Below, in pieces: positions 4,582 through 43,027 of a DNA stretch of 64,000 nt (positions are counted from its first letter, which is position 1; every line of letters starts with the position of its first letter). This DNA is from an uncultured Gemmatimonadota bacterium. GTDB taxonomy: Bacteria > JAAXHH01. A program made the position numbers and the translations under genes. The DNA is taken from positions 2,496,001 through 2,560,000 of the forward strand of contig OX638340.1 of the NCBI GenBank assembly GCA_951812955.1, in the 5' to 3' direction. The notes under the pieces are model-generated. The model made no database searches and was not told where the DNA came from. It saw only the letters and a program-made list of their open reading frames with translations.

Positions 4582-4762
4582 AGGTTGATCGTTAGTCAGG
4601 GCAACATCTGGTGAAGTCAAAAACCAGCCGTAAGGTGATAATTACCACCGATTAAACAGCCTACCTCACTGCCGATTGGGCAGCGGTGACAAAAAACGCG
4701 TATACATAATAATATACGGGCTTTCGGCAGTGTTTCATACAACAATATAACTAAGTGTAATA

Positions 4763-6004: not shown

Positions 6005-6014
6005 CGCGGATTCC

Positions 6015-7262: not shown

Positions 7263-7292
7263 GAATCCATCCTTCAAGGTCTGCAGTACGAC

Positions 7293-8951: not shown

Positions 8952-8998
8952 GGGTCGTCGTCCTGTGGAATCGTTTGTGTCGTACGCGTCGTATGTGT

Positions 8999-18951: not shown

Positions 18952-19076
18952 GAGCTGCTGTTTCTCTCCATAAAGTGAAGGCGGTCGACAGGATGAGAGG
19001 CTGAATCCGGTGATATGGGTTTTCCACCAGGATTACCTGCTTACTAAGCCATTTCGCTCACCGGTTGCGATATCCT

Positions 19077-19769
19077 TTAGTCCCCCACGATCTTCCCGTC
19101 ACGCAGTCGCAGGATCCGGTCGCAGTGCCTGGCGACGTGCTCTTCATGGGTCACCAGCACGATCGTATGTCCGTCCCCGTTCAGGCGATCGAATATCGCC
19201 ATGACCTCCTCCCCGGTCCCGCTGTCCAGGTTTCCGGTGGGTTCGTCCGCCAGAATGATGGACGGTTCGTTGACCAGCGCACGGGCGATGGCCACACGCT
19301 GGCGTTGTCCGCCGGACATCTCGTTGGGCCGGTGGCGGGCCCGGTCGGCGACACCCACCGCGTCCAGGGCCTCCATGGATCGTCGACTCCTTTCCATTCT
19401 GTTCATCCCACGGTAGAGGAGCGGCAATTCCACATTGCGCAGGGCGTCCATTCTCGGAAGCAAGTTGAAAGCCTGGAACACGAACCCGATCTTGCGGTTC
19501 CGGATGAAAGCCTGTTCATCGTCCGAAAGGTCTCCAACCGGTCTGCCGTCAAGTTCGTAGCTGCCCGCCGTCGGCGTATCCAGGCAACCCAGGATGTTCA
19601 TCAGGGTGGATTTCCCGGAACCCGACTGCCCCATCACAGCTACGTACTCACCCCGGTCTATGGTGGCGGAGACGCCCCGGAGCGCGGTAATGCGGTCGCC
19701 TCCCATGGGGAAGGACTTATGCAGGTTTACGATGGAGATAAGGGACGAGGAACGGATGGATCGATGCAC
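19077..19769 (-). CDS. MacB/LolD-type ABC transporter ATP-binding protein (cassette C).
   Basis: It has Walker [10 protein letters not shown], the Q-loop, the signature [15 protein letters not shown], Walker [12 protein letters not shown] and an H-loop. It has a GTG start with AGGAAG 6 nt upstream. Confidence 0.85.
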
Positions 19770-19812
19770 GACGGCTTCCTGTGACCGGGTGTGTGATTCG
19801 GTTCTATACAGG

Positions 19813-19842
19813 TATAGTCGTGGTTAAATGGGAAATCTCGTA
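19813..19842. repeat. Leader motif copy S1 (TATAGTCGTGGTTaaaTGGGAAATCTCGTA), 45-75 nt upstream of the cassette-C ATPase start on the coding strand.
   Basis: The 30-mer is read directly and recurs at 21613-21642 and, with 4 mismatches, at 26475-26504. About 95 bp of extended homology between S1 and S3 (19762-19845 versus 26406-26504) includes the GTGCATC start-codon region. Confidence 0.75.
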
Positions 19843-19991
19843 CGGGTTGCTGAATTGACAGGGTGTTCTCAATACCTGGAGTATGTTGTCAATACAAATG
19901 GTAACCAGTTGGGTTGACGGGACGTTTGCATCTCTATACCATAGTCGTTGCCCCTAATCATGAAATTGCCCCTGACCAAGGAACCAGTGAC

Positions 19992-20597
19992 ATGTCCGCT
20001 CCCGCCTCACGCATGAATGCCCGGCTATTTCTTTACGCAGCTGTCGCAGCCCTCGTCGCATTTAGCATCACCCTCTTCTGGCGCAATTATCAACAAAATC
20101 AAGACCTTCAGATTCTGCAGCATGGGCTATACAACGCCCAGGTAGAAATCCGCGTGCTGCAGGCGACCAATATGTTCGGGGCGCCCTTTATCACCCCCTT
20201 CCCCATGGTCGACCAGCACGGCCAACCTGCTGCATTACCGAATTTCGGTAATGGTCACCTGCTCCTCCTGTTTTTTAATGCGACGCATAGTCCATTTCGC
20301 CTCGACCTGATGTCTACATTTGGGTCGGTGATCGGAGACAATGTCCCGGTTATCGGCATTCTCCAGGCAGAATCGGCCGAGGAGATCTCGCCGATCGTGG
20401 ATCAATTCAGGTACAGCTTTCCGGTGTATCTGGCCGTCGATTCGCCCTTTGATCTGCCGTTTACACCCTACTGCGTGCTGATCGATGGATCCGGCAACGT
20501 GGTACACCTGTCACCCATCGCACCCGTCGGGTCCGCCGATACCCGATCGGTGGAGGCACTTATTTCGGAATTTGCGCAGTTGCTAGAGGGCGGGTAA
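19992..20597 (+). CDS. Hypothetical membrane-anchored protein with a thioredoxin/redoxin-like fold signature that lacks the CxxC motif.
   Basis: It has an N-terminal TM helix (LFLYAAVAALVAFSITLFW). A redoxin-like segment HLLLLFFNATHSPF sits where TlpA/ResA proteins carry WCxxC. This is a low-GC gene. Confidence 0.5.
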   Translation: MSAPASRMNARLFLYAAVAALVAFSITLFWRNYQQNQDLQILQHGLYNAQVEIRVLQATNMFGAPFITPFPMVDQHGQPAALPNFGNGHLLLLFFNATHSPFRLDLMSTFGSVIGDNVPVIGILQAESAEEISPIVDQFRYSFPVYLAVDSPFDLPFTPYCVLIDGSGNVVHLSPIAPVGSADTRSVEALISEFAQLLEGG

Positions 20598-20681
20598 GCC
20601 TTTTGCGCAACCTGGTGTGAAGTATCACCGGGCACCCGAAATGACGAATATGTACAATGTAAAACAAGGAGTAGCCTGATC

Positions 20682-21176
20682 ATGATCACTATTCACAAGG
20701 TGTTAATGGTATTATTGGTCCTGTCTGTAACCGCTTGTGGCGATGATGGTCAACCGAAGCAGGCAGGTCAATCGCAAATGGCTGGCCAACCGGACCAGGT
20801 TGGTCAAACGCCAACGGCAAGCCGACCGGACCCTGTGGCCGACCAGAAAGCTGGTATTTATCGGCCCACTACGGTGGACACGAAAGCTGAGATTGTTTAT
20901 TTTCCCCCTGTTCCCACCGACGTCGTCGATCTCGAATTCGATGGCCTCACAGTGATACAACTCGTTGTTGGTACTAATGGCAATGTAGACACGGCATTCG
21001 TCGAAAGATCGTCAGATCGCGTTTCTGTGGACTCTCTGATGCTGGACGTGGCTAAAAAAATGGTCTGGACGCCGGCAGTACATGACGGTGCCCGGGTAAA
21101 GATGCGAACCTCGATCCCGTTTATGTTCAAGATACCCACTCCAACCCCTGGCGAGGAGACCGTCACCGAGGAATAA
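20682..21176 (+). CDS. Lipoprotein with a C-terminal TonB-C-like domain (cassette C partner).
   Basis: It has a lipoprotein signal (LVLSVTAC). The C-terminal roughly 90 aa fit the TonB C-terminal pattern (P-x-P...VVDLEF...G-V..A-V..SS....LD.AA...V..W.P....G.V....IPF.F). This is a low-GC gene. Confidence 0.68.
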   Translation: MITIHKVLMVLLVLSVTACGDDGQPKQAGQSQMAGQPDQVGQTPTASRPDPVADQKAGIYRPTTVDTKAEIVYFPPVPTDVVDLEFDGLTVIQLVVGTNGNVDTAFVERSSDRVSVDSLMLDVAKKMVWTPAVHDGARVKMRTSIPFMFKIPTPTPGEETVTEE

Positions 21177-21528
21177 GGATCAACGTGAGATACCCCGCAG
21201 ATCGACCGTGAATGCCCTCGTCTTATCAAACCTGCTGTTTCGTTTCGAAGGAGTTACATATCCGGGCGAAGGCCCAAGCAGGCCTTCTATCCGGGAATTA
21301 CGCACGCCCAGGTGCGCAATCCGTTTTTCAATCTACGAAACCCGCTCATCAAGGTGGGCGATACGGTCGCCCAGGCGTATATCGAGTTGAGATATGCGGG
21401 TATCGAGGCTGCGCCAGACAAAGAGCAGGATCCCGATTGCGACGACATTGCTTATGACGTTTGTGGCGTCCACGATCATCTCTTGACTATGTTATTTAAA
21501 AAGTTCCAGCTTCGACATCCTTCGATCT

Positions 21529-21642
21529 ACCTGGTTCTGCCAGAACCGGATTGGCCCGAAACGGCCACGTATTCGCCCCGGTTAATGGTGGCGTATACAC
21601 CCCGCAACGCGGTATAGTCGTGGTTTGGTGGGAAATCTCGTA
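21529..21642 (-). pseudogene. Fragment of an ABC ATPase 5' region (Walker A segment only), directly abutting leader motif copy S2.
   Basis: The reverse-complement frame reads (DFPPNHDYT)ALRGVYATINRGEYVAVSGQSGSG and then terminates. It parallels residues 18-52 of the ATPase at 19077-19769. The motif at 21613-21642 is the same sequence seen upstream of that intact gene. Confidence 0.5.
21613..21642. repeat. Leader motif copy S2.
   Basis: It is identical to S1 except for 3 positions in the central spacer. The upstream 'tataca' homology is also retained, with an 11-bp insertion. Confidence 0.75.
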
Positions 21643-21793
21643 ACAAAAGGCTTTGACAAGGAAAGTGTAAGTGTCGTTCGAATGAAAGAGCATTGTACTG
21701 TGGTCAGGAGGTAATTACTTACCATAGACCCGAACGGCTGAAGCAAATGGTGCTAAGAAACAACCACAATCAGAAGTGTTACTTGCTACTGCC

Positions 21794-24193
21794 TTATTCT
21801 GCTTTGAGTGCATCAGCAGGATTCGCCGTCGCGGCTTTCAGCGCATGGTATCCGACCGTAAACCAAGTGATCGTAAGCGCGGCGAGCCCCGTGAGAATGA
21901 ACATCCACAAACCTATTTCGATACGGTACGGAAAACCTTCCAGCCACCCCTGCATGATGTAGTAACTGATAGGTACGCCAAGAACGAGAGCGATCAGGAT
22001 CAGCCAGGTAAAGTCCTTCGACAACAGCAGGATGACGTTCGAAACCGTCGCACCGACTGCCTTGCGAACGCCGATCTCCCTGGTCCGCTGTTCGGCCATG
22101 TAGGACGCCAGTCCCAACAAGCCCAGACAGGCGATCAGAATGGAAAGCGTCGCTCCGGCGATGAAGACGGACCCCAGCCGTTGTTCGGCGGCGTACTTTT
22201 GCTCGAGATCCTGGTCGAGGAAGTAGAATTCCATGGCGGGATGGTTCGGATAGGTTTCGCGCCACTGGTCCTGCAGTATTTCAAGTCCCTGGGTAAGGCT
22301 CTGGCTGCGCAGCCTGGCTACCATCGTATTGCCACCTTCCCAAAACAGAATCAAAAGCGGTTCAATGCGTTGGTGTAGCGTATGGTAGTGGAAATCCGCC
22401 ATGACGCCGACAACGTGCATTGGAGGATAGTCGGGTGTATGGGTATAGGTAAACGTCTTACCAATCGGGTCTTCCCATCCAAAAGACCTGGCAGCCGTTT
22501 CGTTGATAAGAACTGAGTAGTTGTCCGAAGCGACTGCGCGAGAAAACGTACGTCCCGATATTATCTCGATGCCCATTGTTTCTACGAAGTCGAAACCGGT
22601 CCAGATTGTGGGGATGAGCGGGGTATCCTCCACGATATATCCTTCCGGCTGAATGAAACTGGTAGCAGTTAGTCTGCCGGGCACGCTGGTTGTTGTGCTC
22701 AGGTTTACGATTTCAGGATACTGCATCACCTTGTTCCGGAAGGCCGGGAAACCCTGGACGGTCTCATAATCAGGCAGTCGTATAACTACCACGTGCTCTT
22801 TATCGAATCCCAGTTTCTTGTTTCCGATGTACTCCAGTTGCTCCAGTATAACCAACATTCCGACGATCATGATGATCGAGACGACGAACTGGAAGGTGAT
22901 CAGCGCTTTTCTGATAAGCGACGGTGAAACTCCCGTCTTCAACGCTCCGCTAAGTACGACAGCCGGCCTGAAAGAGGAAAGTACGAGGGCTGGGTATCCT
23001 CCGGCGATAATCCCGGTACAAAGTGCGATGGCCGCCAGGGCCGGCATCAGCCACGTGGATTGATAATCCATCTCCAGTGCCTTTCCCGAAAACCGGCTGA
23101 ACTCGGGCAGGAGCAGGTGTACCAGTGCCAGCGCCACGGCCAGGGCGATGAAGGCGAAGAAAACCGACTCGCCGATGAATTGCCCGATCAACTGGACCCG
23201 CTGGGCGCCCAGCACTTTCCGAATACCGACCTCCTGCGCCCGTCGTGCCGAACGGGCCGTGGATAGGTTCATGAAGTTCACGCAGGCGATCAGCAACATG
23301 AATATAGCCACCGAGGTGAAGATGTAGACATATCGAATGTCGCTGTTCGCTTTTATCTCAAGTTTGAAATTGGAGTGCAGATGGATATCGGTGAGCGGCT
23401 GCAGATAGGGTCTGAATTCCATGCCCAGCGTCTCCAGTCGTTCACCGAGGTGCCTTACCGGAAACTGGGGAAGTTTGTCTTCCAGGTCTTCCGGCGCGTA
23501 TCCCTCTTGAATCAGGAGATAGGTATACAGGGTTCTGTCCATGTTCTGGATCGTGGTCGGCTCGTTGTATATCCCGCTCGCCGAGAGAGTGGAAAACGAA
23601 GCAAGAAAGTCGGCGCGAAAATGCGAGTTCTTTGGCATATCGCGCATGATGCCCGTGACGGTAAACATGTAGATTTCGTCTGCGGAAATCACTTTCCCAA
23701 TCGGGTTCTCATTCCCGAAAATCATCTCCGCCATGGTTTCGGAAACGACAACGGTATGGGGTTTAGTCAGGGCCGTCTGGGGATTGCCCTGAACCAGAGG
23801 GAAGGTGAAAATGTCAAATACGGTTGAATCCGCAAAAATGAAGTATTTCTCCTCATAACTTTTTTCTTCGTAACCAATGAGCCAACTGGAATCCGGCGGC
23901 TTCCACCGGGTGAACTGCTCAATTTCTGGATACTCCTCCTTCAGGACCGGACCCCACGCTGATGGCGTCCTCGCCCATTCGTCCGTTCTGCCTTCCGCGG
24001 TACCAGATACCACTATTCGGTAAATCCGGTCTTTGCGCTCGTGGTGCTGATCGTAACTGAGCTCGTCCTCCACGTAGAGCAGGATCAGAATGCAGGAAGT
24101 CAGACCGATGGCCAGACCCAGGACATTAATCGTGGAATAGCCCCTGTGCCTGAACAGGTGCCTCAAAATGACGGTAACGTAGTTTCTGAACAT
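21794..24193 (-). CDS. MacB-like ABC transporter permease with duplicated FtsX domains and two large extracytoplasmic domains (cassette C).
   Basis: It is 799 aa with an N-terminal TM helix, a large loop, 3 TM, a second large loop and 3 TM. Each half ends with the FtsX-type motif (…ARSARRAQEVGIRKVLGA…, …EQRTREIGVRKAVGAT…). Confidence 0.85.
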   Translation of the reverse strand: MFRNYVTVILRHLFRHRGYSTINVLGLAIGLTSCILILLYVEDELSYDQHHERKDRIYRIVVSGTAEGRTDEWARTPSAWGPVLKEEYPEIEQFTRWKPPDSSWLIGYEEKSYEEKYFIFADSTVFDIFTFPLVQGNPQTALTKPHTVVVSETMAEMIFGNENPIGKVISADEIYMFTVTGIMRDMPKNSHFRADFLASFSTLSASGIYNEPTTIQNMDRTLYTYLLIQEGYAPEDLEDKLPQFPVRHLGERLETLGMEFRPYLQPLTDIHLHSNFKLEIKANSDIRYVYIFTSVAIFMLLIACVNFMNLSTARSARRAQEVGIRKVLGAQRVQLIGQFIGESVFFAFIALAVALALVHLLLPEFSRFSGKALEMDYQSTWLMPALAAIALCTGIIAGGYPALVLSSFRPAVVLSGALKTGVSPSLIRKALITFQFVVSIIMIVGMLVILEQLEYIGNKKLGFDKEHVVVIRLPDYETVQGFPAFRNKVMQYPEIVNLSTTTSVPGRLTATSFIQPEGYIVEDTPLIPTIWTGFDFVETMGIEIISGRTFSRAVASDNYSVLINETAARSFGWEDPIGKTFTYTHTPDYPPMHVVGVMADFHYHTLHQRIEPLLILFWEGGNTMVARLRSQSLTQGLEILQDQWRETYPNHPAMEFYFLDQDLEQKYAAEQRLGSVFIAGATLSILIACLGLLGLASYMAEQRTREIGVRKAVGATVSNVILLLSKDFTWLILIALVLGVPISYYIMQGWLEGFPYRIEIGLWMFILTGLAALTITWFTVGYHALKAATANPADALKAE

Positions 24194-24323
24194 GACGTAT
24201 TATCAGTGCCGATTTATGGACGATCGTAGAGATCGCTTAATAGCGTGCTCGACTATGTTCAGAGTGCTTTCCACGTGCAAAGTGCTTCGGTTTTCGTAAT
24301 CTGGATGCCCCGTCCATCGTCGG

Positions 24324-26198
24324 TCAACCATGTTCAGAGTCCTTCAGCACTTCAATTTTGGTCTGTCCGCTTTCCGTAGCGATTACGACATCGGTATTCC
24401 CATATTCATAGGTTGTCCCTAACGACATTCTAATGTTATTACTCGACCATGCATTGAGAGGCATCAATTCCTTTACCTCTTCATACTTCAGTACACCGCA
24501 ACGGGTATGCATAACCAAGCTGGTAGTTTTCGCTGCTTTTTCGCTTAACGCCAGTATCAGGTTGCCGGAAACGGTACGGAGGTTGCACCTGCCCCTTCGA
24601 ATACCGTCAGTGTAGCACAGCCGAGTGGTGCCATAGCGGTTGAAAATGGAAACATCTCCATTTAGATCACGTGCATCCAACACAGTACGACCGACTTCCA
24701 TATCCACACCGCCACTGATTGACTCGATCTTTCCTTCCCACTGATCTGGGCGTGCTAACATGTCGTGATCCAAGCTGCTTCCCCCACAGCCGTACATACG
24801 CTGATATACCAATCCGCTTACCTGTCGTATTTTGGAGAACTCGCTGTTGAAAAGATAGACATCTCCTGTGATTCCCTGTATATGGCAGGAATAGCAGGAA
24901 TACATTAAAAGTGAACCTTTCAAACCATCCACATTGACCTTATTGGATCTGAAAACCGACATTCTCATCCCGGCGGGAACCGAAATCGACATATGGCAAT
25001 ACGTGGCATGGCCGAATAGATTCGTTTCGTCGGTACAAACAGCTTCGAAAATATCCTCGACATTGCCTGACACGGTCGCTCTCGGCAATTCTATGGGTCG
25101 TACATTCGAAGTGTGAACAGTGATACGTAGTGATTTCCCCAGACTGTTTCCCACAGGTTTCGGCAGGGGCAGAAATCCGTCGACTTCATGCTTCAAATCT
25201 GGAAACATGTCGACCGTTCTTACACCGCCGACATTATCCTCCAGCACGCGGTCATTAATCAGATCACTTCTCCAGAATTTACTGATTGGCGACGTAGCGG
25301 CTACGTAATCAGATCCATAAGGGTTGCTGGTACCAAGAAACAACGCCCCTTCGTGGGGGCCTGTTTCCAGGTAGTTGGCGACCTGGTCATGAGATATATG
25401 AAAGCCGCTGAGGTTGCTTCGCGATTCTTCTTCCGTCAGACCCAACGCGATCTTCGAACCTTCAACAATAACCTGTTTTCCCTGTGCCTGCTTAATATCG
25501 ACCTCCGTATTCACGCCGCAGTAGAGGACAATGTTTTTCGTGTCTCCCATGTCTATGGTTTCACTGAAATCTTCTCTGGCGATCTTGCAGACCACATCCT
25601 GTACTTCATCGGTCACATCGATCTGGCTCATGGCGATGGTCTCCTTTTCCTGAGGCGACAGTGCTGCTCTCAGCCGGATCCGGGACTGGAATAGCCGTCC
25701 TTTCACCGTCGATTCGGGAATGTCCAGAAACGAGGCGATTTCCTTCAGTGAAAAACCGGTGTAGTAGTACAAATTGACGATCTGGCGATAGTGTTCGGGC
25801 AGTCTCTCGACTTCATCCCAAAGCTCGAGACACTCGAGGTATTCCCGATGGATCTGGTCCGCCAGGGGGAATTCGTCGCGCATATGTTCAGCATCCGGAT
25901 CGACTCGGACCAGACGATCAACCTTCTTCCGACGGCGCGATTCCTTGCATCGGTTGACGACGATTCTGTGAAACCAACTACCGAAAACGGCCGGGTCCTT
26001 CAATTGCGACAACTTGCAGTAAGCGGCAACGAATGCATCCTGTACCACGTCCTCCGCGTCTGTTCGATCCCGAAGGAATCCCAGCGCTACGGCGAAAGCG
26101 GCGTTCTGGTACCGCCGGACCAGCGGCTCGAAGGCGTCGGCGTTTCCCTGCAGGCACTGCAGGATGCTGTAAGTGTCGTCGTGTGTTGTTTTCGCCAT
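24324..26198 (-). CDS. ECF sigma-70 family factor fused to a roughly 430-aa cysteine-rich C-terminal domain with DUF4097/beta-solenoid-like periodicity.
   Basis: The N-terminal 180 aa contain sigma region 2 (DAEDVVQDAFVAAYCKLSQL…FHRIVVNRCKE) and region 4 (YYYTGFSLKEIASFLDIPESTVKGRLFQSRIRLR). No TM helix is evident in the remainder. Strands such as TVSGNLILAL, DVSIFNRYGTTRL and DVVIATESGQTKIEV resemble 'toastrack' repeats. Confidence 0.72.
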   Translation of the reverse strand: MAKTTHDDTYSILQCLQGNADAFEPLVRRYQNAAFAVALGFLRDRTDAEDVVQDAFVAAYCKLSQLKDPAVFGSWFHRIVVNRCKESRRRKKVDRLVRVDPDAEHMRDEFPLADQIHREYLECLELWDEVERLPEHYRQIVNLYYYTGFSLKEIASFLDIPESTVKGRLFQSRIRLRAALSPQEKETIAMSQIDVTDEVQDVVCKIAREDFSETIDMGDTKNIVLYCGVNTEVDIKQAQGKQVIVEGSKIALGLTEEESRSNLSGFHISHDQVANYLETGPHEGALFLGTSNPYGSDYVAATSPISKFWRSDLINDRVLEDNVGGVRTVDMFPDLKHEVDGFLPLPKPVGNSLGKSLRITVHTSNVRPIELPRATVSGNVEDIFEAVCTDETNLFGHATYCHMSISVPAGMRMSVFRSNKVNVDGLKGSLLMYSCYSCHIQGITGDVYLFNSEFSKIRQVSGLVYQRMYGCGGSSLDHDMLARPDQWEGKIESISGGVDMEVGRTVLDARDLNGDVSIFNRYGTTRLCYTDGIRRGRCNLRTVSGNLILALSEKAAKTTSLVMHTRCGVLKYEEVKELMPLNAWSSNNIRMSLGTTYEYGNTDVVIATESGQTKIEVLKDSEHG

Positions 26199-26474
26199 AG
26201 GGTAGTTGTCGTCTTAAGGGTTTCGTACAAAATCAGATAATAAGGAAGCGTTACATAGAATAAGATGACCTTGCGGCCTCAACGGTTAAAAACAAAATCG
26301 TGTATATGGTGGCGGTCAGGTCTCGAAGAGTTGAAATACGGCCTATCCCCTCATGGAATGACCTTTCGAGACCGACAACGCAGATTTTGGGGTCGATTCG
26401 TATCGGTAGGTTCAGATTCAAAAGGATGCACGACTCATGACCGGTATCGGAAGCGTATTCAACTTCCTATCACG

Positions 26475-26504
26475 CATAGTCGTGGTTTGGTGGGCAATTT
26501 CGAA
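26475..26504. repeat. Leader motif copy S3, lying between the two ECF-fusion genes.
   Basis: It reads cATAGTCGTGGTTTGGTGGGcAATtTCGaA. The flanking roughly 65 bp, including the GTGCATC pseudo-start, are homologous to the leader of the ATPase at 19077-19769. Confidence 0.7.
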
Positions 26505-26537
26505 CGTACAGTTACCTGCGGGGTTCGAGACTTAAAC

Positions 26538-28412
26538 TCACTTCATCGCGTCGGGGCCATCTGACAACTCGACTTCGGCGGTGCCACTTTCTGTAAGGAG
26601 CAGATAGTCCGCGTGCGTTGTATCATACGTAGTTCCGGCCGTGATGCGATGCCCGTCGTTATATGTCGAATAGAGCCGCATCACGTCCTTTGCCTGACCC
26701 AATTTCAAGACGCCACAACGCGTATACATCACAACGCTGACCGTCTTTGCGAGTCTTTCATCCAGAACCAGCTTTGCCTCGCCAGAGACGGTCCTGAGGT
26801 TACAACGAGTTCCGGATTCCCGGGATGACTGGTACAAGCGGGTTGTACCGAATCGGTTGTAAATGGATACGTCACCCTCCAGGTCCTGCGCGTCCAGCAC
26901 GAAACGGCCGACATCGATATCCACACTGCCCTTTATATTGGATAGTTTTCCTTCCCACACATCCGTGTTGCGTATCATTCCGTCAAGGTAGCTCGCGGCG
27001 CCGTATTCATACATTCGCTGACAGAACACACCGCCTACTTCATGTATATCCGAAAACATGCTGTTGAACAGGTACACATCCTTCGAGATACCGGTTATCT
27101 GGCAGGAATGGCAGGCATACACCATCAAGGAACCGTTCAATCCCTCCGCGTTGATCCGCTTCGCCTTGAACACCGAAATGTTCTTTCCGGCCGGGACCTC
27201 AATAGAAACATGACAGTACGAGGCCGGTCCGAAAACCTTGGAATCATCGGACCAGTAAACCTGGAAAACATCCTTGATGCTTTCCGTCATGGCGGAGTTC
27301 GGTACATGAATCGGCCGTACTTCCATCGTGTGAACCGAAATCCGTATTGATTTGCTCAAGCTCGCACGCGCCGGTTTTGGCAGCGGAGGAAACGTATCGA
27401 TATCGTCTTTAAGATCCGGGTACAGATCGACCAATCTCACCCCGTTACAAACTTCGTCCAGCATCCAGTCGTTCATCAGATCCCGTCTCCAGTGGTCGCT
27501 GATCCGTTTGGTCATAGCTGCGTTTTCGCCACTGGTTGAATCTACACCGACAAAAAGCTCACCTTCATGGGGACCGGCTTTATAGAAATCATCGACCGTA
27601 TCGTGGGAAACGGCAAATCCGCCAAGGTTGAGGGTTGCCTCTTCTTCGCTAAAACCAAGCGCGATCTTCGAACCTCTCACAACAACCTGTTCTCCTTGCG
27701 CCTGCTTAATCTCAACCTCCGTACTCACGCCGCAATAGAGGACGATGTTCTCTACGTCGCCCATGTCGATCGTTTCTACAAAATCCTCCTTGGCGATCCG
27801 GCAGACAACATCCTGGACCTCTTCGGTTACGTCGATCTGGCTCATGGCAATGGTCTCCTTTTCCTGTGGGGACAACGCCTCTCTCAGCCGGATTCTGGAC
27901 TGATAGAGGCGTCCCCGCGCCGTGGATTGCGGAATGTCCAGAAAGGCAGCGATTTCTTTCAGTGAGAAGCCGGTGTAGTAGTACAACGTGACGACCTGGC
28001 GATAAAGTTCCGGGAGCTGCTCGACTTCATCCCAGATTTCGAGACGCTCGATGTATTTTTGATGGATACGATCCGACATAGCGAATTCATCGCGAGATTC
28101 TCCAGAAACCGTATCGACGCGGACTTGACGACCGATTCTGCTTCGTCGGACCAGCTCCTTGCAACGGTTGACAACGATTCGGTGAAACCAACTGCCGAAA
28201 ACGGCCGGGTCCTTCAACTGCGACAGCTTGCAGTAGGCGGCCACAAAAGCATCCTGTACCACGTCCTCCGCGTCTGTTCGATCCCGAAGGTAACCCAGAG
28301 CCACGGCGAAAGCGGCATTCTGGTACCGCCGGACCAGCGGCTCGAAGGCGTTGGCGTTTCCCTGCAGGCACTGGCGGATGTTATAGGTATCGTCGTGTAT
28401 GAGAGTGGTCAT
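26538..28412 (-). CDS. ECF sigma factor / C-terminal beta-solenoid-like domain fusion protein, tandem paralog of 24324-26198.
   Basis: It is the same length (624 aa) and roughly 65-70 percent identical to its neighbour across both the sigma and C-terminal parts. Confidence 0.72.
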   Translation of the reverse strand: MTTLIHDDTYNIRQCLQGNANAFEPLVRRYQNAAFAVALGYLRDRTDAEDVVQDAFVAAYCKLSQLKDPAVFGSWFHRIVVNRCKELVRRSRIGRQVRVDTVSGESRDEFAMSDRIHQKYIERLEIWDEVEQLPELYRQVVTLYYYTGFSLKEIAAFLDIPQSTARGRLYQSRIRLREALSPQEKETIAMSQIDVTEEVQDVVCRIAKEDFVETIDMGDVENIVLYCGVSTEVEIKQAQGEQVVVRGSKIALGFSEEEATLNLGGFAVSHDTVDDFYKAGPHEGELFVGVDSTSGENAAMTKRISDHWRRDLMNDWMLDEVCNGVRLVDLYPDLKDDIDTFPPLPKPARASLSKSIRISVHTMEVRPIHVPNSAMTESIKDVFQVYWSDDSKVFGPASYCHVSIEVPAGKNISVFKAKRINAEGLNGSLMVYACHSCQITGISKDVYLFNSMFSDIHEVGGVFCQRMYEYGAASYLDGMIRNTDVWEGKLSNIKGSVDIDVGRFVLDAQDLEGDVSIYNRFGTTRLYQSSRESGTRCNLRTVSGEAKLVLDERLAKTVSVVMYTRCGVLKLGQAKDVMRLYSTYNDGHRITAGTTYDTTHADYLLLTESGTAEVELSDGPDAMK

Positions 28413-28442
28413 GTTGAATCAAATCGAAGTCTGAATGCAGTT

Positions 28443-29441
28443 TTAGTCGAGATATGCATCAAAAGCCGCCAGCAGTGAAGGATAGTAATCTTCGAAGGTC
28501 ATATCTTGAATATGATGCTGCTCGAAATCCTCAAGTGCTCGAATAAGGGCGGGGAGGTAGTGAAACCCCTTTTCTATATCTCGCACGAGTAAACGATCAC
28601 CGTGTTTTGGACCCGTTTCTCTATGAAACAATCGAGACGTAATGGCGCGTATCAAATGTTCGTTCAAGCATATCTCCCAAGCCCCATAGCCACCCGCCTT
28701 AGCCATTTTATCTAGTATCGGGTCCAACAATGAGGCGTACTTCCCGATGTCAGGGCGATGTCGTTCAGTAACGGGATTAACGAACGAATGGCCGAACTCA
28801 TGCCAGATGAGTTCCAGCAATTCGTCTCTTGTTCCATACACCGGAATACCTTCAACCGATCCGACAGGCCCTATCACGCTGAATATGGACAGCCTGTTAT
28901 CAGGATGTCGGACTCGAGGTCCGATCCCACCGTGTTGAAACAAGGGGCTCAAAACCAGGTTGTAGTCACGATGTCGCATTCCATAGTATTGTTCCAAGAC
29001 GTCGATCAAATTCTCACTGCCCAGTGTTTGAAAAACTGTGTCAATTAAGGATTTGTAGTACGTGGTTTGGCTTTCAAAAAAAGTACCAAAGTCCGATTGG
29101 ATCGCAAAATCACTCAGTAGTTTGTAGAATGTTCGAAACCGGGTTTCGCCTTGAAATGCTCGAATGTAGTATTCGTAGTTTTCGTACGGGAATATAGGTG
29201 TGAGTCCCGGCAGTTCCGACAGCGACAACACCGGACCCAGGTAGGCGTCCGAGTAAGTACCATTCTCTGTGATTTTCCTAAACAGCTTGACTGCCTCATG
29301 CGTTTTGAATGGCGAAAAGTAATCCCGCATGTACTGGGAATACGCCACATCGTACCTGGTTAGTCCTTCATAGTCGCACAGCAACTTTATAGTGATGACA
29401 AGTTCAATTCTGGGATCTACGTCGATGCTCAGCCTGGTCAT
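28443..29441 (-). CDS. Hypothetical HExxH-motif protein (putative zinc-dependent peptidase-like).
   Basis: It has a single HEFGH motif (IWHEFGHSFVNPV) in the C-terminal half. It has no signal peptide and is low-GC. Confidence 0.5.
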   Translation of the reverse strand: MTRLSIDVDPRIELVITIKLLCDYEGLTRYDVAYSQYMRDYFSPFKTHEAVKLFRKITENGTYSDAYLGPVLSLSELPGLTPIFPYENYEYYIRAFQGETRFRTFYKLLSDFAIQSDFGTFFESQTTYYKSLIDTVFQTLGSENLIDVLEQYYGMRHRDYNLVLSPLFQHGGIGPRVRHPDNRLSIFSVIGPVGSVEGIPVYGTRDELLELIWHEFGHSFVNPVTERHRPDIGKYASLLDPILDKMAKAGGYGAWEICLNEHLIRAITSRLFHRETGPKHGDRLLVRDIEKGFHYLPALIRALEDFEQHHIQDMTFEDYYPSLLAAFDAYLD

Positions 29442-29503
29442 CTCTATTTCTCCGTGCTCGGCGAAAGGAGTCGGTATATCTCGACCGAGGATACCGAATG
29501 CAC

Positions 29504-30394
29504 TTACCGTCCGTACCCGCTTTCTTTAAAAAAACGTAGCGCATCGGGGCCGTCCTTTATGGCCAGAATGTCCTCAATAGCCGCCTTTTTATCAGCCCTC
29601 TTCTCGTAGTATGCTTCACATATCTTGTACCCTACGTAGTATCCAAGGTCAGCAGGCCTTGCTCCCGTGCCGCTGCCGCCGTTGTAGAGCCATTTGCTCA
29701 TATCGGTTTGTAACATTTCATTCGAGAACGATTCCCACAATTCAGTTTCGTGCGCCTCTCCATACACGTGCAAATGAGGGTTGATGTGTTTTCCAGTTGC
29801 TAACTCTCCAAGGAAATCGGCAGCACCTTCGAGTATGGAGTGACCCAGTAGTGTGTTTTCTCCAAAATCATAGGCCTGTTGAGTGTGTATAAGTTCGTGG
29901 ATAACGATAAATGGAATCTCTTCTACCGGTTTGAGGACTTCAAGATACCATTCGTTCAGTTCGTCCGAAGGAAGATCGTCCGTCCGGCACCAAATTTCGG
30001 TCCCGATCAGCAGCCCATTGCTCGACGTTGTTCCGCCGGAGGTCATTTTGCCAATCATAAAGTACACATCTGGAAAATCTGCCTTACTGTATAGTTGCTT
30101 CCAGTTGTGCATATACCCACGGATCTGATCGGTCAAATCCAACACACGGTTTGAACTCTCTCTTATAGAAGCGTAATACCTCGGTCGGGCTTCGATTACC
30201 TTGACCAACTCATCCGCACTCTCGATTCTGGATTCGATGAAATCTTTTAAACCGATACTGCCCTTTGCGAAGTACTCCGATTCGAAGATGTTTATCATTT
30301 CTTCTGTAGTCTTGCCTTCTGACAGGTCGTACGCCAGCCAGAAACGATCGATATCGGAAGTAACCAACCGGACGTCGTCGGGATCGTTACTCAT
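29504..30394 (-). CDS. Hypothetical HExxH-motif protein (DUF2268-like putative Zn-dependent protease).
   Basis: It has a HELIHTQ motif followed by GHSILEGAADF, and its length is near 300 aa. The assignment is from memory of the family and was not searched. Confidence 0.5.
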   Translation of the reverse strand: MSNDPDDVRLVTSDIDRFWLAYDLSEGKTTEEMINIFESEYFAKGSIGLKDFIESRIESADELVKVIEARPRYYASIRESSNRVLDLTDQIRGYMHNWKQLYSKADFPDVYFMIGKMTSGGTTSSNGLLIGTEIWCRTDDLPSDELNEWYLEVLKPVEEIPFIVIHELIHTQQAYDFGENTLLGHSILEGAADFLGELATGKHINPHLHVYGEAHETELWESFSNEMLQTDMSKWLYNGGSGTGARPADLGYYVGYKICEAYYEKRADKKAAIEDILAIKDGPDALRFFKESGYGR

Positions 30395-30908
30395 TGAGGA
30401 AAACCTCCCTGTTTGCTGAGCATAGGCTATTGCGAAACTCGTACCAGCAGAAATACCAACAAAGGACCATGCACGTCTCGAATCTCGTTGAGTTCATAAC
30501 AGACATGATCATGGGTCTAGTTTTCCTTTGCCAGTCTGCACCCTGTGAAGAAGTCTGAATCGGTCGACCGTATGTTGACCGTACATGGTTTACAGGTGTT
30601 GATTGCCCGATGAGGGACATAACCCTCTGATAGTTTAGACGCTTCAGTACTCCAATTGATCAAAATCGAATTTGTTGGTTCTGTGAATTTGCAAATGAGA
30701 AGTCCACACACGATCATAAGAGGGACATTTACACATCGTACGTTTTGTCCTCAATTTCGTGGTCTGGTTGTTCACTGTATACACCCCACCGCATCATTGA
30801 CACCGGCACCGATTCCCTTATATTCTATATATAGGTATTACTACATATAAAAAGGATCACGAGAGCAGGCTGAATACCATTAGCATTTCAAACTGAACAG
30901 GAGTAGTC

Positions 30909-31403
30909 ATGGCGTTCCTGGAAGCCGGGGTCGCGGCCCCGGAAGTCACCCTGGAAGACGCGGACGGACAATCGACGTCGCTGGCCGACCTGACTAACGG
31001 CGGCTGGTTGCTGGCCGTCTTTTACAAGGTGGGCTGCGGGACCTGCAAGTTCAGCGCCCCCTATTTCGAGAAGATCCACCAGGCTTACGGCGGCAAGCAG
31101 GGATTCCGGGTGCTCGGTGTCTCGCAGGACACGCCGGAGGACACCCGCGCTTTCATGGACGAACACGGCGCTTCCTTCGAGAACGTGTACGACGCCACCC
31201 ACTGGGCCTCCGCGGATTTCGGCCTGACGAACGTGCCGACGTGGTTTCTCATGGACGAAAACGGCGGCATACTGGACAGCAACACGGGCTTCTGCCGGAC
31301 CGACCTCAACGAGTTGTCGGTGACCGTCGCGGCCCATCTCGGCGAAGAGGCCGTTGTCATTTCGCCGGGGGACGACGGCGCGCCCGAACTGAAGCCTGGA
31401 TGA
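30909..31403 (+). CDS. Thioredoxin-fold thiol-disulfide oxidoreductase (redoxin/TlpA-like).
   Basis: It has the CGTC active-site motif in the context LAVFYKVGCGTCKF, is about 160 aa and is a high-GC gene. Confidence 0.75.
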   Translation: MAFLEAGVAAPEVTLEDADGQSTSLADLTNGGWLLAVFYKVGCGTCKFSAPYFEKIHQAYGGKQGFRVLGVSQDTPEDTRAFMDEHGASFENVYDATHWASADFGLTNVPTWFLMDENGGILDSNTGFCRTDLNELSVTVAAHLGEEAVVISPGDDGAPELKPG

Positions 31404-32888: not shown

Positions 32889-34452
<1,564 letters not shown>

Positions 34453-34536
34453 AGTTATTGAAACTCGAGGTCGACTTGTCCGGCGCACGATGTGCACGCT
34501 GTCATGTTTTTAAAGTTGGGGGGCCTGTAGTACTGG

Positions 34537-34613
<77 letters not shown>

Positions 34614-34623
34614 TTGAAAGCCG

Positions 34624-34696
34624 GGGGATATAGCTCAGCTGGGAGAGCGCCGGCTTTGCAAGCCGGAGGTCACCGGTTCGATCCCGGTTATCTCCA
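34624..34696 (+). tRNA. tRNA-Ala (anticodon TGC) in the 16S-23S spacer; CCA is not encoded.
   Basis: It has the GGGGATA…TATCTCC acceptor stem with the G3:U70 identity pair, the anticodon loop tTTGCAa and TTCGATCCC in the T-arm. It is followed by ctgg. Confidence 0.92.
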
Positions 34697-34800
34697 CTGG
34701 GCACAGCAGACGAGTACAGGTGCCCGCTCTTTGACAATTACATAGGAATGACGGGAACGGCGTTGTAACATCGGAGCACTCAAGCACAGTAGCATTTTTT

Positions 34801-37869
<3,069 letters not shown>

Positions 37870-37921
37870 GCTCCAATTTATGTCGTCGTTCTCTCATTCC
37901 ATGTAATTGCCAACCCATTTC

Positions 37922-38040
37922 TTCCGGTGGCGATAGCGGAGGGGAAACACCTCTTCCCATTCCGAACAGAGTAGTTAAGCCCTCTTGCGCCGATGGTACT
38001 GCTTGGGTGACCTTGTGGGAGAGTAGGACGCTGCCGGGGG
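37922..38040 (+). rRNA. rrf: 5S ribosomal RNA.
   Basis: It contains CCGAACAGAGTAGTTAAGCC…GCGCCGATGGTA…GGGAGAGTAGGACGCTGCC, which aligns with the bacterial 5S consensus. Confidence 0.9.
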
Positions 38041-40582: not shown

Positions 40583-43027
40583 CTACTCGTACCTCAACGC
40601 TTCAACAGGATTCGACCGCGCCGCTTTGAGGACGTGTAGGCCGACCGTGGAGGCCGCTACGGCAAGAATGGCCAGGCCCACCAGGACAAAGAGCGCCGGG
40701 TTGGGCGCAATGCGATAGGCGAAGTCACGCAGCCAACTTTCCATGACGAGGTAGGCGATCGGCCAGGCGATGACGCTCCCCGCAATGGCCATGATCACGA
40801 ACTCTTTCGACAGAAGCTGTACAAGTTGCGCCCTGGTCGCCCCCAAAATCTTGCGAACGCCGATTTCCTTCGTTCGCTGGTGCACGGTGAGGGAGACCAG
40901 GTTGAATAGCCCCAGGAAGGTCAGCACAATGGCAAGCAACGCGCATATTCCGAGGAGCGTGCCAAGGCGTTCTTCAGCCAAATACAGCTGGTCTATATCG
41001 TCTTCGAGAAAGGAATAGACGAGCGGGATTTCCGGGTAATGGGATCTCCAGACGCTATTGAGGTCCTCGAGCGCGGAGGCCGTACTCCCAGGTTGCAGTC
41101 GAACGCTCATGTGTTCGCCAAAGGAACTGCTTAAGAATACCATGGGCTCGACGGGCTGGTAAAGAGAACGAAAGTGGGTGTCTTGAATCACGCCGACGGC
41201 TCTGCCGCGCTGGACGTACTGCGGTAAGACGATTTCGATCGTCTTGTCCAGGGCCACTTCAGCGGAACTCCATCCCAGATGCCGGACGGCCGTTTCATTC
41301 AGGACTACCTCGAATACGGCGAACGGATTGAACATCCTCATATCTCTTGGCTTCAGATTCGAGCCCAGCACCAGGCTTATGTCCAGGGTCTCGAAAAAGT
41401 CGTGCTCCACGTTCACTATGCGGATAGACGAGGATACCGGCATATCGCTGTCGTCCCCGCGTCGAACCATGGTTTCCCCGATCATGCCCCTCCCCGGCGC
41501 GAGCCCGGGAACGTAATCCGACAGGGAGACGCCCTCGATGTACGGTGACCGCAGCAACTCGTTCTGGAATCCATCGGAGGATCTAGGATTAAACTGTTGG
41601 GAGCCTTCAGAAGAGCTTGATTCAATGGCCTCCACGAAGAATCCCGATATGAGGGGAACGACTATCACATTGGATTTTTCGAAGCCCGGAGGTTCGTTCA
41701 TCATGAACCGCAACTGGCTGTAGACCACACCCGTGCCGATGATCAGGATGGCGGAAAGGGCGAACTGGACCGTGATAAGAATACGCTTCACAAAGGGATA
41801 GTCGATCGCCTGGCTCAACCGGCGGCTAAGTGCGTCCATCGGCCGGTATCCAGACAGAACCATGGCCGGAAAACTCCCCGAGAATGCCCCCACGAGGACT
41901 GAAATGGCGATCAGACCAAGCCATATGTCGAGGTGTTGTATAAAACCCATGGACAGTGCCTTCCCAGTCACGGCGTTGAAGGCTGGAAGCGAAAGCCGGG
42001 CAAGCAGAACCGCCAGGACGAGTACCAGGCCTGAGATCATTACGGACCCGCTCAGATACTGCACGACAATACGTGAACGGTTCGCGCCGTACACTTTCAT
42101 TAGGCCCACTTCCTTCGCGCGGGCTGTCGACTGAACCATAGACAGATTGATGAAGTTGATGCAGGCGATCAGCAGCAGGAAAACGGCCCCCGTCATGAGG
42201 GTGTAGAGATAGGCCACACTGCTGTTCGCCTCGAGTTCGTTGAGTAGATTGGAACGCAGGTGAATCGCGGTCAGCGGTTGAAGGGAAAACCGGTAGTCCC
42301 GGATGCTCTCCCGGTTCACGGGCTTGATCTCGGTGTCGAAGTAAGCCTGGAACTTGGACGTCAGTTCCGGCACCAGGCTCTGATCGTGCAAACGCAGGTA
42401 CGTATAGTAGGTTGCGCTCCACCAGTTGTCCATGAACTGCAATTCCGTTCCGAAAGACAGGAACATGTCCGCGGTGAAATGCGTATGGCCCGGGAAGTCC
42501 TCCATGACGCCCGTGATGGTAAAGCTGTACGTGTTGTCCAGGCGCATCACCTCGCCCATGGGGTCCACTTCGCCGAAGTACTTCCTTGCCATCGATTCCG
42601 AGATGACCGCTTTGTTCTGCCCCTCCAATGCGGTGGCGGGATTCCCCTTGAGCAGGGGGATGGTGAAAACGTCGAATAGCGAAGGCTCGGTCCAGTAGAC
42701 CCGGTCTTCGTAGAACTCCCGGTCACCGAACCGTATAAGCCAAATGGCCCGAGTCGCCCGCATGCGGACAGCGCTTGCTACTTCCGGAAAGTTCTGTTTC
42801 AGCGTGGAAGCCGCTGCGCCCGGCGTGCGCGCGTTGTTGCCATTGATCAGCCGATAGACCTGCGGAGCGTACCTGTGGTGTGTATCGTAGGTCCATTCGT
42901 CCTTTATGTACAATAGCGTGAGTACGCACGCGGCCATGGCGATGGCCAGCCCCGTGACGTTGATGGTCGTATGGGATCTTTGCTTGAGCAGGGCTCTGAC
43001 GGCTATTCTGAGGTGGTGGGTGAACAT
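40583..43027 (-). CDS. MacB-like ABC permease with duplicated FtsX domains (cassette A).
   Basis: It is roughly 815 aa with the same topology and conserved blocks (TARAKEVGLMKVYGA, QRTKEIGVRKILGAT, C-terminal NPVEALRYE) as the permeases at 21794-24193 and 46447-48864. The chosen start MFTHHLRIAVRALLKQRS aligns with its paralogs. Confidence 0.85.
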   Translation of the reverse strand: MFTHHLRIAVRALLKQRSHTTINVTGLAIAMAACVLTLLYIKDEWTYDTHHRYAPQVYRLINGNNARTPGAAASTLKQNFPEVASAVRMRATRAIWLIRFGDREFYEDRVYWTEPSLFDVFTIPLLKGNPATALEGQNKAVISESMARKYFGEVDPMGEVMRLDNTYSFTITGVMEDFPGHTHFTADMFLSFGTELQFMDNWWSATYYTYLRLHDQSLVPELTSKFQAYFDTEIKPVNRESIRDYRFSLQPLTAIHLRSNLLNELEANSSVAYLYTLMTGAVFLLLIACINFINLSMVQSTARAKEVGLMKVYGANRSRIVVQYLSGSVMISGLVLVLAVLLARLSLPAFNAVTGKALSMGFIQHLDIWLGLIAISVLVGAFSGSFPAMVLSGYRPMDALSRRLSQAIDYPFVKRILITVQFALSAILIIGTGVVYSQLRFMMNEPPGFEKSNVIVVPLISGFFVEAIESSSSEGSQQFNPRSSDGFQNELLRSPYIEGVSLSDYVPGLAPGRGMIGETMVRRGDDSDMPVSSSIRIVNVEHDFFETLDISLVLGSNLKPRDMRMFNPFAVFEVVLNETAVRHLGWSSAEVALDKTIEIVLPQYVQRGRAVGVIQDTHFRSLYQPVEPMVFLSSSFGEHMSVRLQPGSTASALEDLNSVWRSHYPEIPLVYSFLEDDIDQLYLAEERLGTLLGICALLAIVLTFLGLFNLVSLTVHQRTKEIGVRKILGATRAQLVQLLSKEFVIMAIAGSVIAWPIAYLVMESWLRDFAYRIAPNPALFVLVGLAILAVAASTVGLHVLKAARSNPVEALRYE

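Follow-up and report, generated by a model that had tools for sequence, protein, structure and literature searches.

An ECF sigma factor pair fused to a Toastrack-type domain in uncultured Gemmatimonadota, with a candidate internal start at the domain junction

Bacterial signal transduction has extracytoplasmic function (ECF) sigma factors as its third major mode, and those members carrying fused extensions act as one-component systems. The 64,000-nt stretch of DNA from an uncultured Gemmatimonadota bacterium studied here (contig OX638340.1, positions 2,496,001 to 2,560,000; hereafter the window, in whose numbering all gene coordinates are given) contains two tandem genes, A and B. Each encodes an ECF sigma factor that continues into a C-terminal domain (CTD) of 435 residues. 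This raises the question of what the additional domain is, and how a sigma factor might be controlled from within its own polypeptide. We find that the CTD has a Toastrack fold, and that a conserved Shine-Dalgarno (SD) sequence and ATG at the domain junction probably yield the same domain as a free protein.

Fusion of an ECF sigma factor to a cytoplasmic beta-helix module

The two open reading frames (ORFs) reported by the initial annotation were recovered, both 624 codons long and both on the minus strand. Residues 1-185 of each protein form the sigma core, with Pfam matches to Sigma70_r2 (residues 26-92) and Sigma70_r4_2 (residues 124-176; 125-176 for A alone), the families involved being PF04542, PF08281 and PF07638. 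The NCBIfam model TIGR02937 (sigma70-ECF) scores 82-83.5 bits in A and B against a cutoff of 42.9, in agreement with the clear sigma-2 and sigma-4 regions that had been annotated. At only ~185 aa, the sigma part contains regions 2 and 4 and lacks regions 1.1 and 3, as is typical of ECF (group 4) sigma factors, and ECF sigmas were the only matches in a PDB profile search with this part. Both NCBIfam and PDB rankings describe the core as RpoE/SigW/SigM-like, with the best NCBIfam models (PRK11922, SigM, SigW, RpoE-like) scoring far below their own equivalog cutoffs.

Residues ~190-624 of A and B gave no Pfam or NCBIfam match, even at E ≤ 1. The highest 19-residue Kyte-Doolittle mean is 0.76 for A and 1.03 for B, compared with a transmembrane (TM)-like level of ~1.6. 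Neither fusion therefore contains a TM helix, as the initial annotation had also concluded, and the CTD, located behind a cytoplasmic sigma factor and with a hydropathy maximum of no more than 1.03, is placed inside the cell as Toastrack domains are. The same annotation described the CTD as Cys-rich, which overstates a content of 9-10 residues (2.1-2.3%). C567 is the only CTD cysteine that is invariant across the family, and the idea of a Cys-rich metal or redox sensor was rejected on this basis.

The overall identity of A and B is 62%, below the 65-70% originally estimated, and is distributed unevenly: 78% for the sigma part, 84% for residues 186-253 and 46-50% for residues 254-624. Both A-type and B-type copies recur in other genomes, and sequence comparison thus marks the proposed tandem duplication as real and old. 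The homologues of gene A begin at CCCTATGACGAC..., while the corresponding gene A ATG reads CCCTTAAGACGAC (26199-26225, minus strand). Gene A uses a new ATG ~18 nt downstream, resulting in MAKTTHDD as opposed to MTTTTHDD in the homologues, and its start codon seems to have moved in the wake of a mutation or a small duplication.

A word-indexed search with the CTD as query yielded 87 close clusters, virtually all 619-633 aa in length and with sigma domains; the named ones are Gemmatimonadetes metagenome-assembled genomes (MAGs). When a CTD-only profile was used in an exhaustive hidden Markov model (HMM) search of 1.84 billion (1.84e9) representative proteins, 114 representatives were obtained, most of them 590-670 aa long with the CTD starting at ~185-198. 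All named members of this set are from uncultured Gemmatimonadota, Latescibacterota or Poribacteria, and those from the latter two, which are distant, are annotated just as 'sigma-70 family'. Sigma domains were detected in 49 of 60 distant relatives sampled, and 16 species-level genomes carry the fusion. Where an ECF extension is taken as more than 50 aa after sigma4 throughout a group, this family has 435 aa in essentially all 87 close clusters as well as in ~50 distant full-length relatives.

Long ORFs of this type could in principle be artefacts, an ECF sigma gene and a DUF4097-like gene having been merged by assembly or frameshift error. Several database entries indeed list a ~435-aa CTD-only protein. 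However, the entries checked reflect start-codon choices or contig-end truncations, with sigma in frame upstream. P0072 and P0073 (loci L001 and L002), candidates for a split sigma/partner pair, were rejected as such because an intact sigma part lies in frame upstream, and P0107, P0121 and P0123 are truncated by contig ends rather than being stand-alone proteins. A metagenome DNA scan with a 15-sequence alignment provided 27 further loci. Altogether, 43 non-identical full-length homologues from independent assemblies, including complete MAG chromosomes, have one uninterrupted frame. This refutes the artefact explanation, to which we attach practically no weight, and the fusion is an invariant feature of a rare family. 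The assemblies L083-L085 and the contigs of P0107, P0121 and P0123 break exactly within the highly conserved sigma-coding part, probably because paralogous copies act as repeats, the outcome being artificial CTD-only entries.

The CTD is a beta-helix in the predicted model. Residues 190-253 have a pLDDT above 90 and form near-invariant alignment columns, with beta strands predicted for residues 205-253. We scanned 81 close and 60 distant relatives (141 in all) against Pfam, reporting matches down to E ≤ 1. Weak, sub-threshold matches to PF13349 were found in 25 of the 81 close relatives (best 3.3e-4) and in 6 of the 60 distant ones (best 1.3e-5), bearing out the DUF4097/toastrack resemblance suggested by the initial annotation; PF22744 contributed three further sub-threshold matches among the relatives. 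None of the Toastrack Pfam models (PF13349 and relatives) was matched at gathering score. No SnoaL-like or TPR domain was matched at E ≤ 1 in the window proteins or the 141 relatives, nor was there a zf-HC2 or RskA match indicative of a class I anti-sigma domain (ASD/ZAS) in the CTD. We regard both the fusion architecture and the Toastrack fold as established. Matches to the CTD also occur in ENA metagenome proteins (P0181, P0206, P0207); here, ten matches to CTD positions 41-107 (E 4e-10) fall within a protein of 5500 aa with cadherin/He_PIG repeats. For the giant protein P0181, with its cadherin/Ig repeats, this is probably generic beta-sandwich similarity, and hints at a generic Ig-like beta module in the N-terminal part of the CTD.

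A comparison of 19 close-family genes reveals that sigma residues 1-185 and residues 186-253 are both ~80% identical, compared with ~52% for residues 254-624. In gene A coordinates, the family mean identity of residues 190-253 is 79%, with ~50% for the remainder of the CTD. Synonymous divergence differs far less between the conserved and variable parts (0.38 versus 0.52), and protein-level selection therefore explains the split better than gene conversion. The paralogues thus share one DNA-recognition module and the beta sub-domain next to it, divergence being concentrated in the large beta-helix part. At the level of sequence, this is the pattern expected if residues 190-253 were to partner the sigma core intramolecularly, with the remainder serving as an input surface.

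A candidate start signal inside the gene

The junctions of A and B both read CAG GAA AAG GAG ACC ATY GCC ATG, in which the last codon is that of Met190, and the 3' end of the window 16S rRNA (...CACCTCCTTTCT / ...GATCACCTCCTTTCT) is a canonical anti-SD. The pattern (A/C)AGGAG-ACC-ATY-GCC-ATG is present in 21 of 21 close copies. Its Glu codon is invariably GAG (21 of 21), and the Glu codon just before it is GAA in 15 copies. Across 20 genes, synonymous diversity averages 0.45 and is lowest in the whole gene at codons 183-194, where it falls to 0.11, well under the 0.36-0.42 of the equally conserved sigma part. Met190 is kept in 35 of 39 closer sigma-fused relatives at 25-40% identity, within a variable linker predicted to be disordered. 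Among the 43 non-identical genes, the linker peptides differ (EKET, EQEV, EREE, QQEE, ELEG, DHEE, ETEG, HEEE, ITED, SGEV, DREE).

The junctions of the 43 non-identical genes were compared with 442 other in-frame ATGs from the same genes. A GGAG/GAGG core at -17 to -5 occurs in 38 of 43 junctions and in 39 of 442 control positions (8.8%), counts that ignore kinship among the genes (no phylogenetic correction), while the mean anti-SD duplex energy is -9.7 and -3.5 kcal/mol, respectively. The annotated 5' starts possess the core in 8 of 40 cases only (mean -3.1 kcal/mol), and ordinary neighbours such as DUF2268 have starts with GGGAGG-type SDs. Gene callers themselves picked the internal ATG in P0072 and P0073, despite the intact in-frame sigma upstream. 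The combination of fixed spacing, a conserved Met and frozen synonymous sites points to a functional internal initiation site. As judged from these genes, it probably yields a free 435-aa Toastrack protein beside the fusion.

Alternatively, the junction SD/ATG may not act as a start, and may instead combine a by-product of the acidic linker with a relic of an ancestral sigma-partner operon, or be an SD-like element that slows the ribosome. Only the full-length protein would then be made. Glu-rich linkers do favour GAG-G, and the L029/L041 lineage has lost the ATG while keeping the fusion. In addition, none of the 43 genes has a stop codon separating the domains, and a full-length protein is therefore always possible. 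However, the ATG persists at 25-40% protein identity within an otherwise variable and disordered linker, at a fixed distance from the SD. Synonymous sites are frozen there specifically, with GAG retained next to a Glu codon that is mostly GAA, and the anti-SD is canonical; selection would not maintain a relic over such depth. We consider this alternative unlikely, although it deserves to be kept in mind.

Promoter, neighbouring genes and composition of the locus

Wherever a close-family sigma-Toastrack gene has an intergenic region of its own, a conserved block precedes the gene. The transcription unit may open with the sigma gene, with DUF2268(/DUF4932) or with a MacB/FtsX permease, and the consensus TTTTGAyC/TTAACC-N16-C(G/A)TC is conserved before all close-family units. 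ECF promoters typically have an AAC-like -35 and a CGT-like -10 element, and the geometry of T-tract, TGAyC, 16 nt and CGTC fits this description. The position of the element suggests that it is recognised by the sigma-Toastrack proteins. When 840 kb of loci were scanned with a pattern that leaves the spacer sequence free, TTTT(T)[GA]A[TC][CG]-N15-17-C[GA]TC[ACT]T[AT], 15 distinct sites were found against 0.2 expected. Each of them has the orientation of the gene and a spacer of 16 nt, with no fewer than five unrelated sequences among these spacers. These sites precede the sigma gene, DUF2268 (L007, L014) or MacB (L010, L015). Other DUF2268-led units, the window's included, possess the same element with a slightly different tail, and it is located upstream of DUF2268 in L001, L002, L003, L007, L008, L014 and L017.

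Within the window, the -35/-10 pattern matches three times, on the minus strand (26291-26264, 30665-30638 and 1110-1083). The third of these, TTTGAATC-N16-CGTC, is without T-tract and without ACTA tail; with 0.22 matches expected by chance, it probably arose at random. Neither sigma-70-type promoters nor terminators exceed chance in the region, and none coincides with the two ECF-like sites. A near-consensus sigma-70-type promoter (TTGACA-16-TATATT, 11/12) is present at 30797-30824 on the plus strand, facing redoxin/lipA, in the divergent intergenic region common to redoxin/lipA and the DUF2268 unit. The initial annotation had suggested a search for a conserved promoter upstream of each gene. 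Of the two elements in Table 1, one lies upstream of gene A and the other upstream of the unit that ends in gene B. Its leader motif at 26475-26504 fared less well, as this aligns between the window and L003 only, and not with L026 or L001.

Table 1. Location of the sigma-Toastrack genes, their putative control signals and neighbouring features in the window
Feature	Coordinates	Strand	Evidence and remarks
Gene A, 624-aa ECF sigma-Toastrack fusion	24324-26198	-	ORF; Pfam and NCBIfam sigma domains; 87 close clusters of same architecture
Gene A, sigma2-sigma4 part (residues 1-185)	25644-26198	-	Sigma70_r2, Sigma70_r4_2, TIGR02937, PDB profile matches
Gene A, conserved N-terminal CTD sub-domain (residues 190-253), beta strands	25440-25631	-	Identity, near-invariant columns, pLDDT
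Gene A, variable CTD part (residues 254-624), including Toastrack-type right-handed beta-helix	24327-25439	-	
Gene A, candidate internal start: AAGGAG (25646-25641), 9 nt, ATG of Met190 (25631-25629)	25629-25646	-	
Gene B, paralogous 624-aa ECF sigma-Toastrack fusion	26538-28412	-	ORF, A/B comparison, Pfam, NCBIfam; start 30 nt past DUF4932 stop
Gene B, candidate internal start: AAGGAG (27860-27855), 9 nt, ATG of Met190 (27845-27843)	27843-27860	-	
Promoter-like element upstream of gene A: TTGTTTTTAACC-N16-CATC-TTATTCTATG	26252-26295	-	Conserved block, 15 loci; ECF-type -35/-10 spacing
Second promoter-like copy, upstream of DUF2268-DUF4932-gene B unit: TTTTGATC-AATTGGAGTACTGAAG-CGTC-TAAACTATC	30626-30666	-	
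MacB_PCD/FtsX duplicated permease, 799 aa, variable cargo, 130 nt downstream of gene A	21794-24193	-	Pfam; same-strand adjacency in close loci and L031/L033, L042
DUF4932 gene, variable cargo, directly upstream of gene B	28443-29441	-	Pfam PF16286, E 3e-52; synteny
DUF2268 / GldB-like predicted Zn-protease-like gene, variable cargo, first gene of B unit	29504-30394	-	Pfam PF10026, PF25594
16S rRNA	32890-34447	+	
tRNAs	34537-34610, 34624-34696	+	
23S rRNA	34801-37868	+	
5S rRNA	37923-38039	+	

The close-family loci have constant flanks, with a divergent redoxin/lipA pair on one side and a convergent TonB_C-like lipoprotein gene on the other. What they enclose differs between loci: the number of sigma-Toastrack genes is one or two and that of MacB_PCD/FtsX permeases zero to two, and DUF2268 (present in 9 of 19 related loci) and DUF4932 may be there or not. 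In the window, the neighbours are DUF4932, DUF2268, MacB/FtsX, the TonB_C lipoprotein and a 227-aa protein without Pfam match. A same-strand MacB-type permease directly adjoins the fusion in at least three further lineages (L031/L033, L042, L039). A gene context conserved across distant relatives was rejected, as this MacB adjacency is the only feature to recur, in 3-4 lineages. The window, the close loci and the distant loci all lack an adjacent anti-sigma gene, and neither zf-HC2, RskA nor other anti-sigma domains were detected there.

The GC content of the sigma-Toastrack block is 0.47-0.53, compared with 0.61-0.66 in the flanks, confirming the low-GC block described by the initial annotation. 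In every genome examined (the window, L003, L005, L010 and L012), the island (~19000-31000) lies 10-20 GC points under the flanking lipA/redoxin genes, with for example 0.51-0.55 for sigma and 0.66-0.70 for lipA. The compositional oddity is therefore old and maintained, as opposed to stemming from a recent transfer into this genome. A complete rRNA operon adjoins the island (32890-38039, plus strand), and was all that an Rfam scan of the locus returned; no regulatory RNA was found.

Two more MacB_PCD/FtsX-type permease paralogues are encoded on the minus strand at 40586-43027 and 46450-48852, with 33-36% identity to the permease by gene A. The latter sits in another low-GC block (46-56 kb), and no sigma-Toastrack promoter was found near either of the two. 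The ~230-nt leader of DUF2268 (30387-30620, minus strand) contains an ORF with a signal-peptide-like end (…MIMSVMNSTRFETCMVLCWYFCWY…), which in the window is out of frame with DUF2268 and overlaps the DUF2268 ATG (ATGAGTAA). A similar hydrophobic stretch is located upstream of DUF2268 in L003 and L017, with a different DUF2268 start or a frameshift as alternatives. Among distant relatives, L079 has two sigma fusions (4082-6052 and 7001-8884; 656 and 627 aa) in tandem, echoing the window pair, and in L081 a Tricorn_C1/Peptidase_S41 gene (8821-10119) overlaps the sigma-Toastrack stop.

A possible circuit and its relation to known systems

On balance, we think it probable that A and B are paralogues in a small, uncharacterised family of self-contained, autoregulated ECF sigma factors with an in-cis CTD, and that the internal start is used. 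Each protein would consist of a normal sigma2-sigma4 core (residues 1-185), a short linker and a cytoplasmic 435-aa module that stands in for an anti-sigma factor. Regulation of sigma in cis by the CTD is what we infer from the sequences. In such a scheme, contact with the sigma core, or gating of it, would fall to residues 190-253, and the variable beta-helix would receive the input by binding a partner or signal. By analogy with Toastrack proteins, docking by the beta-helix could take place close to the membrane, with a MacB-type transporter as one possible partner. The sigma-Toastrack proteins would read their own promoter, the autoregulation being suggested by position only, and the DUF2268, DUF4932 and MacB/FtsX genes between promoter and sigma gene, or just past the latter, would be transcribed along with it and form the regulon. 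One mRNA may give rise to a weakly translated full-length fusion, with a 5' start that usually has no SD, and a well-translated free CTD, which would act in trans, e.g. as an inhibitor or as a buffer that titrates the partner.

A fuller version of this scheme is put forward more tentatively, as plausible yet somewhat short of probable. In this version, one gene gives both an ECF sigma-sensor fusion and a free sensor (Toastrack) domain, and the ratio of fused to free protein, set by translation and not through a separate anti-sigma gene, tunes the sigma factor. The paralogues would have retained promoter specificity while their inputs diverged. With shared promoter specificity and diverged sensor beta-helices, several inputs would feed one envelope-related regulon (MacB-type permeases, DUF2268, DUF4932).

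A number of observations weigh against this proposal. With regard to the fold, A and B themselves have no Toastrack Pfam match at E ≤ 1, and a sequence-profile search with the CTD for solved Toastrack PDB structures found none. In the full-length AlphaFold2 model, the sigma part is of low confidence (pLDDT 35-70), which leaves no usable sigma-CTD interface and hence no usable view of sigma-CTD docking. With regard to the junction, the ATG is missing in one lineage (L029/L041) and the core is weak in two, the SD statistics take no account of phylogeny, and an acidic linker, with Glu followed by a G-initial codon, could yield GAGG on its own. The promoter is assigned to the sigma by position only, and its -35 element (TGAyC) differs from the classical GGAAC. 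Distant relatives show no enrichment of the motif in their upstream regions (3 of 17, versus ~1.3 expected), and their gene contexts are unrelated, some of the contigs being short. In six genomes no cargo gene lies between the flanks, i.e. none directly adjoins the sigma gene. Finally, the carriers of the fusion are uncultured MAGs throughout.

It could also be that the CTD is not a sigma regulator, and that it acts as a tether or scaffold to a membrane complex (e.g. a MacB-type transporter) or has an unrelated function, with sigma controlled by transcription, proteolysis or an unlinked anti-sigma factor. Toastrack domains have been proposed as protein-docking platforms near the membrane (PMC11237479), and MacB/FtsX genes recur beside the fusion in close and distant lineages. 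The overlapping downstream Peptidase_S41 gene in one distant relative and the fact that no sigma-CTD interface is predicted fit this explanation as well. However, conservation of the first CTD sub-domain equals that of the sigma core, as expected of an intramolecular partner, and many loci are without a transporter gene nearby. Furthermore, in the ECF groups with extensions covered by the main text of PMC7826278, a missing anti-sigma usually accompanies regulation by the extension. We consider a purely scaffolding or unrelated role improbable, and retain in-cis regulation as the preferred interpretation.

The main texts of two ECF surveys describe 19 groups with fused C-terminal extensions, which are SnoaL-like, TPR, Cys-rich, DUF1835, TM or ZAS-containing (PMC7826278, PMC8999054). 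Neither main text mentions Toastrack, DUF4097, a beta-helix or Gemmatimonadetes, in line with the suggestion of the initial annotation that the fusion may define an uncharacterised ECF group. As described there, the one-component ECFs (ECF41 SigJ with SnoaL-like domain, ECF42 with TPR, ECF238 CorE with Cys-rich tail) resemble the family reported here in that a soluble cytoplasmic domain follows sigma2-sigma4 directly, the neighbourhood has no cognate anti-sigma gene and autoregulation is likely (PMC7826278, PMC8999054). In contrast to ECF41, ECF42 and ECF238, the extension here consists of 435 aa of all-beta structure including a Toastrack beta-helix, rather than a SnoaL, TPR or Cys motif, and the sigma core is RpoE/SigW/SigM-like; the fusion falls outside ECF41/56/294/295 (SnoaL-like) and ECF42 (TPR). 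None of the extension groups listed in these main texts is from Gemmatimonadota or Latescibacterota, and a junction SD/ATG is not described for them in the same texts.

In the case of ECF48/52/53 (e.g. SCO4117), sigma and a presumed inhibitor or sensor likewise share one ORF, with an extension of ~400 aa; according to the main text of PMC8999054, these extensions combine a zinc-finger anti-sigma domain (ZAS) with TM helices, and activation is thought to be proteolytic. Unlike these, the fusion described here has no ZAS/RskA Pfam match, no TM segment and a beta-rich fold. The family is thus an ECF sigma by every sequence criterion, with a Toastrack fold, and lies outside the SnoaL, TPR and ZAS extension groups.

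Known Toastracks (DUF4097/DUF2154/DUF2807: LiaF, LiaG, VraT, YvlB; structures 4QRK, 4OPW, 3LYC, 3PET) are usually C-terminal to TM domains (PspC, LiaI-LiaF-TM), or else occur as independent proteins whose targets are two-component systems or an operon-linked sigma. The Toastrack is predicted to be an intracellular docking platform, and is tied to ABC ATPase/permease operons and transcription factors (PMC11237479). The main text of that survey reports operon-linked sigma factors and fused or associated helix-turn-helix (HTH) domains, without a direct ECF fusion (PMC11237479). Unlike known Toastracks, the domain reported here is joined directly to an ECF sigma, carries an additional N-terminal part of ~200 aa and gives Pfam matches below threshold only.

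Translation from the predicted in-frame SD and ATG would give a shorter product with the same sequence as the C-terminal part of the full-length protein. Genes with internal starts that give long and short isoforms include those for CheA-L/CheA-S, IF2 alpha/beta and ClpB-93/79, which the predicted arrangement resembles. To our knowledge, there is no case in which the short isoform is the regulatory domain of a sigma fusion.

The family would add a new, large, all-beta extension type to the ECFs, and the enigmatic Toastrack domain would gain a direct transcriptional read-out. For ECF specialists the extension type alone would be an incremental addition, the conserved internal start being the unexpected part. 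If true, a regulator gene nested in the gene of the sigma factor it regulates would be a new way to set sigma/anti-sigma stoichiometry, and one whose dual products gene callers and domain-architecture surveys would miss. The TTTTGAyC-N16-CGTC promoter and the sigma/sensor modularity could serve as orthogonal parts for synthetic biology. The host lineages (Gemmatimonadota, Latescibacterota and Poribacteria MAGs) are uncultured, and this would therefore be one of the few regulatory circuits there that can be predicted end to end.

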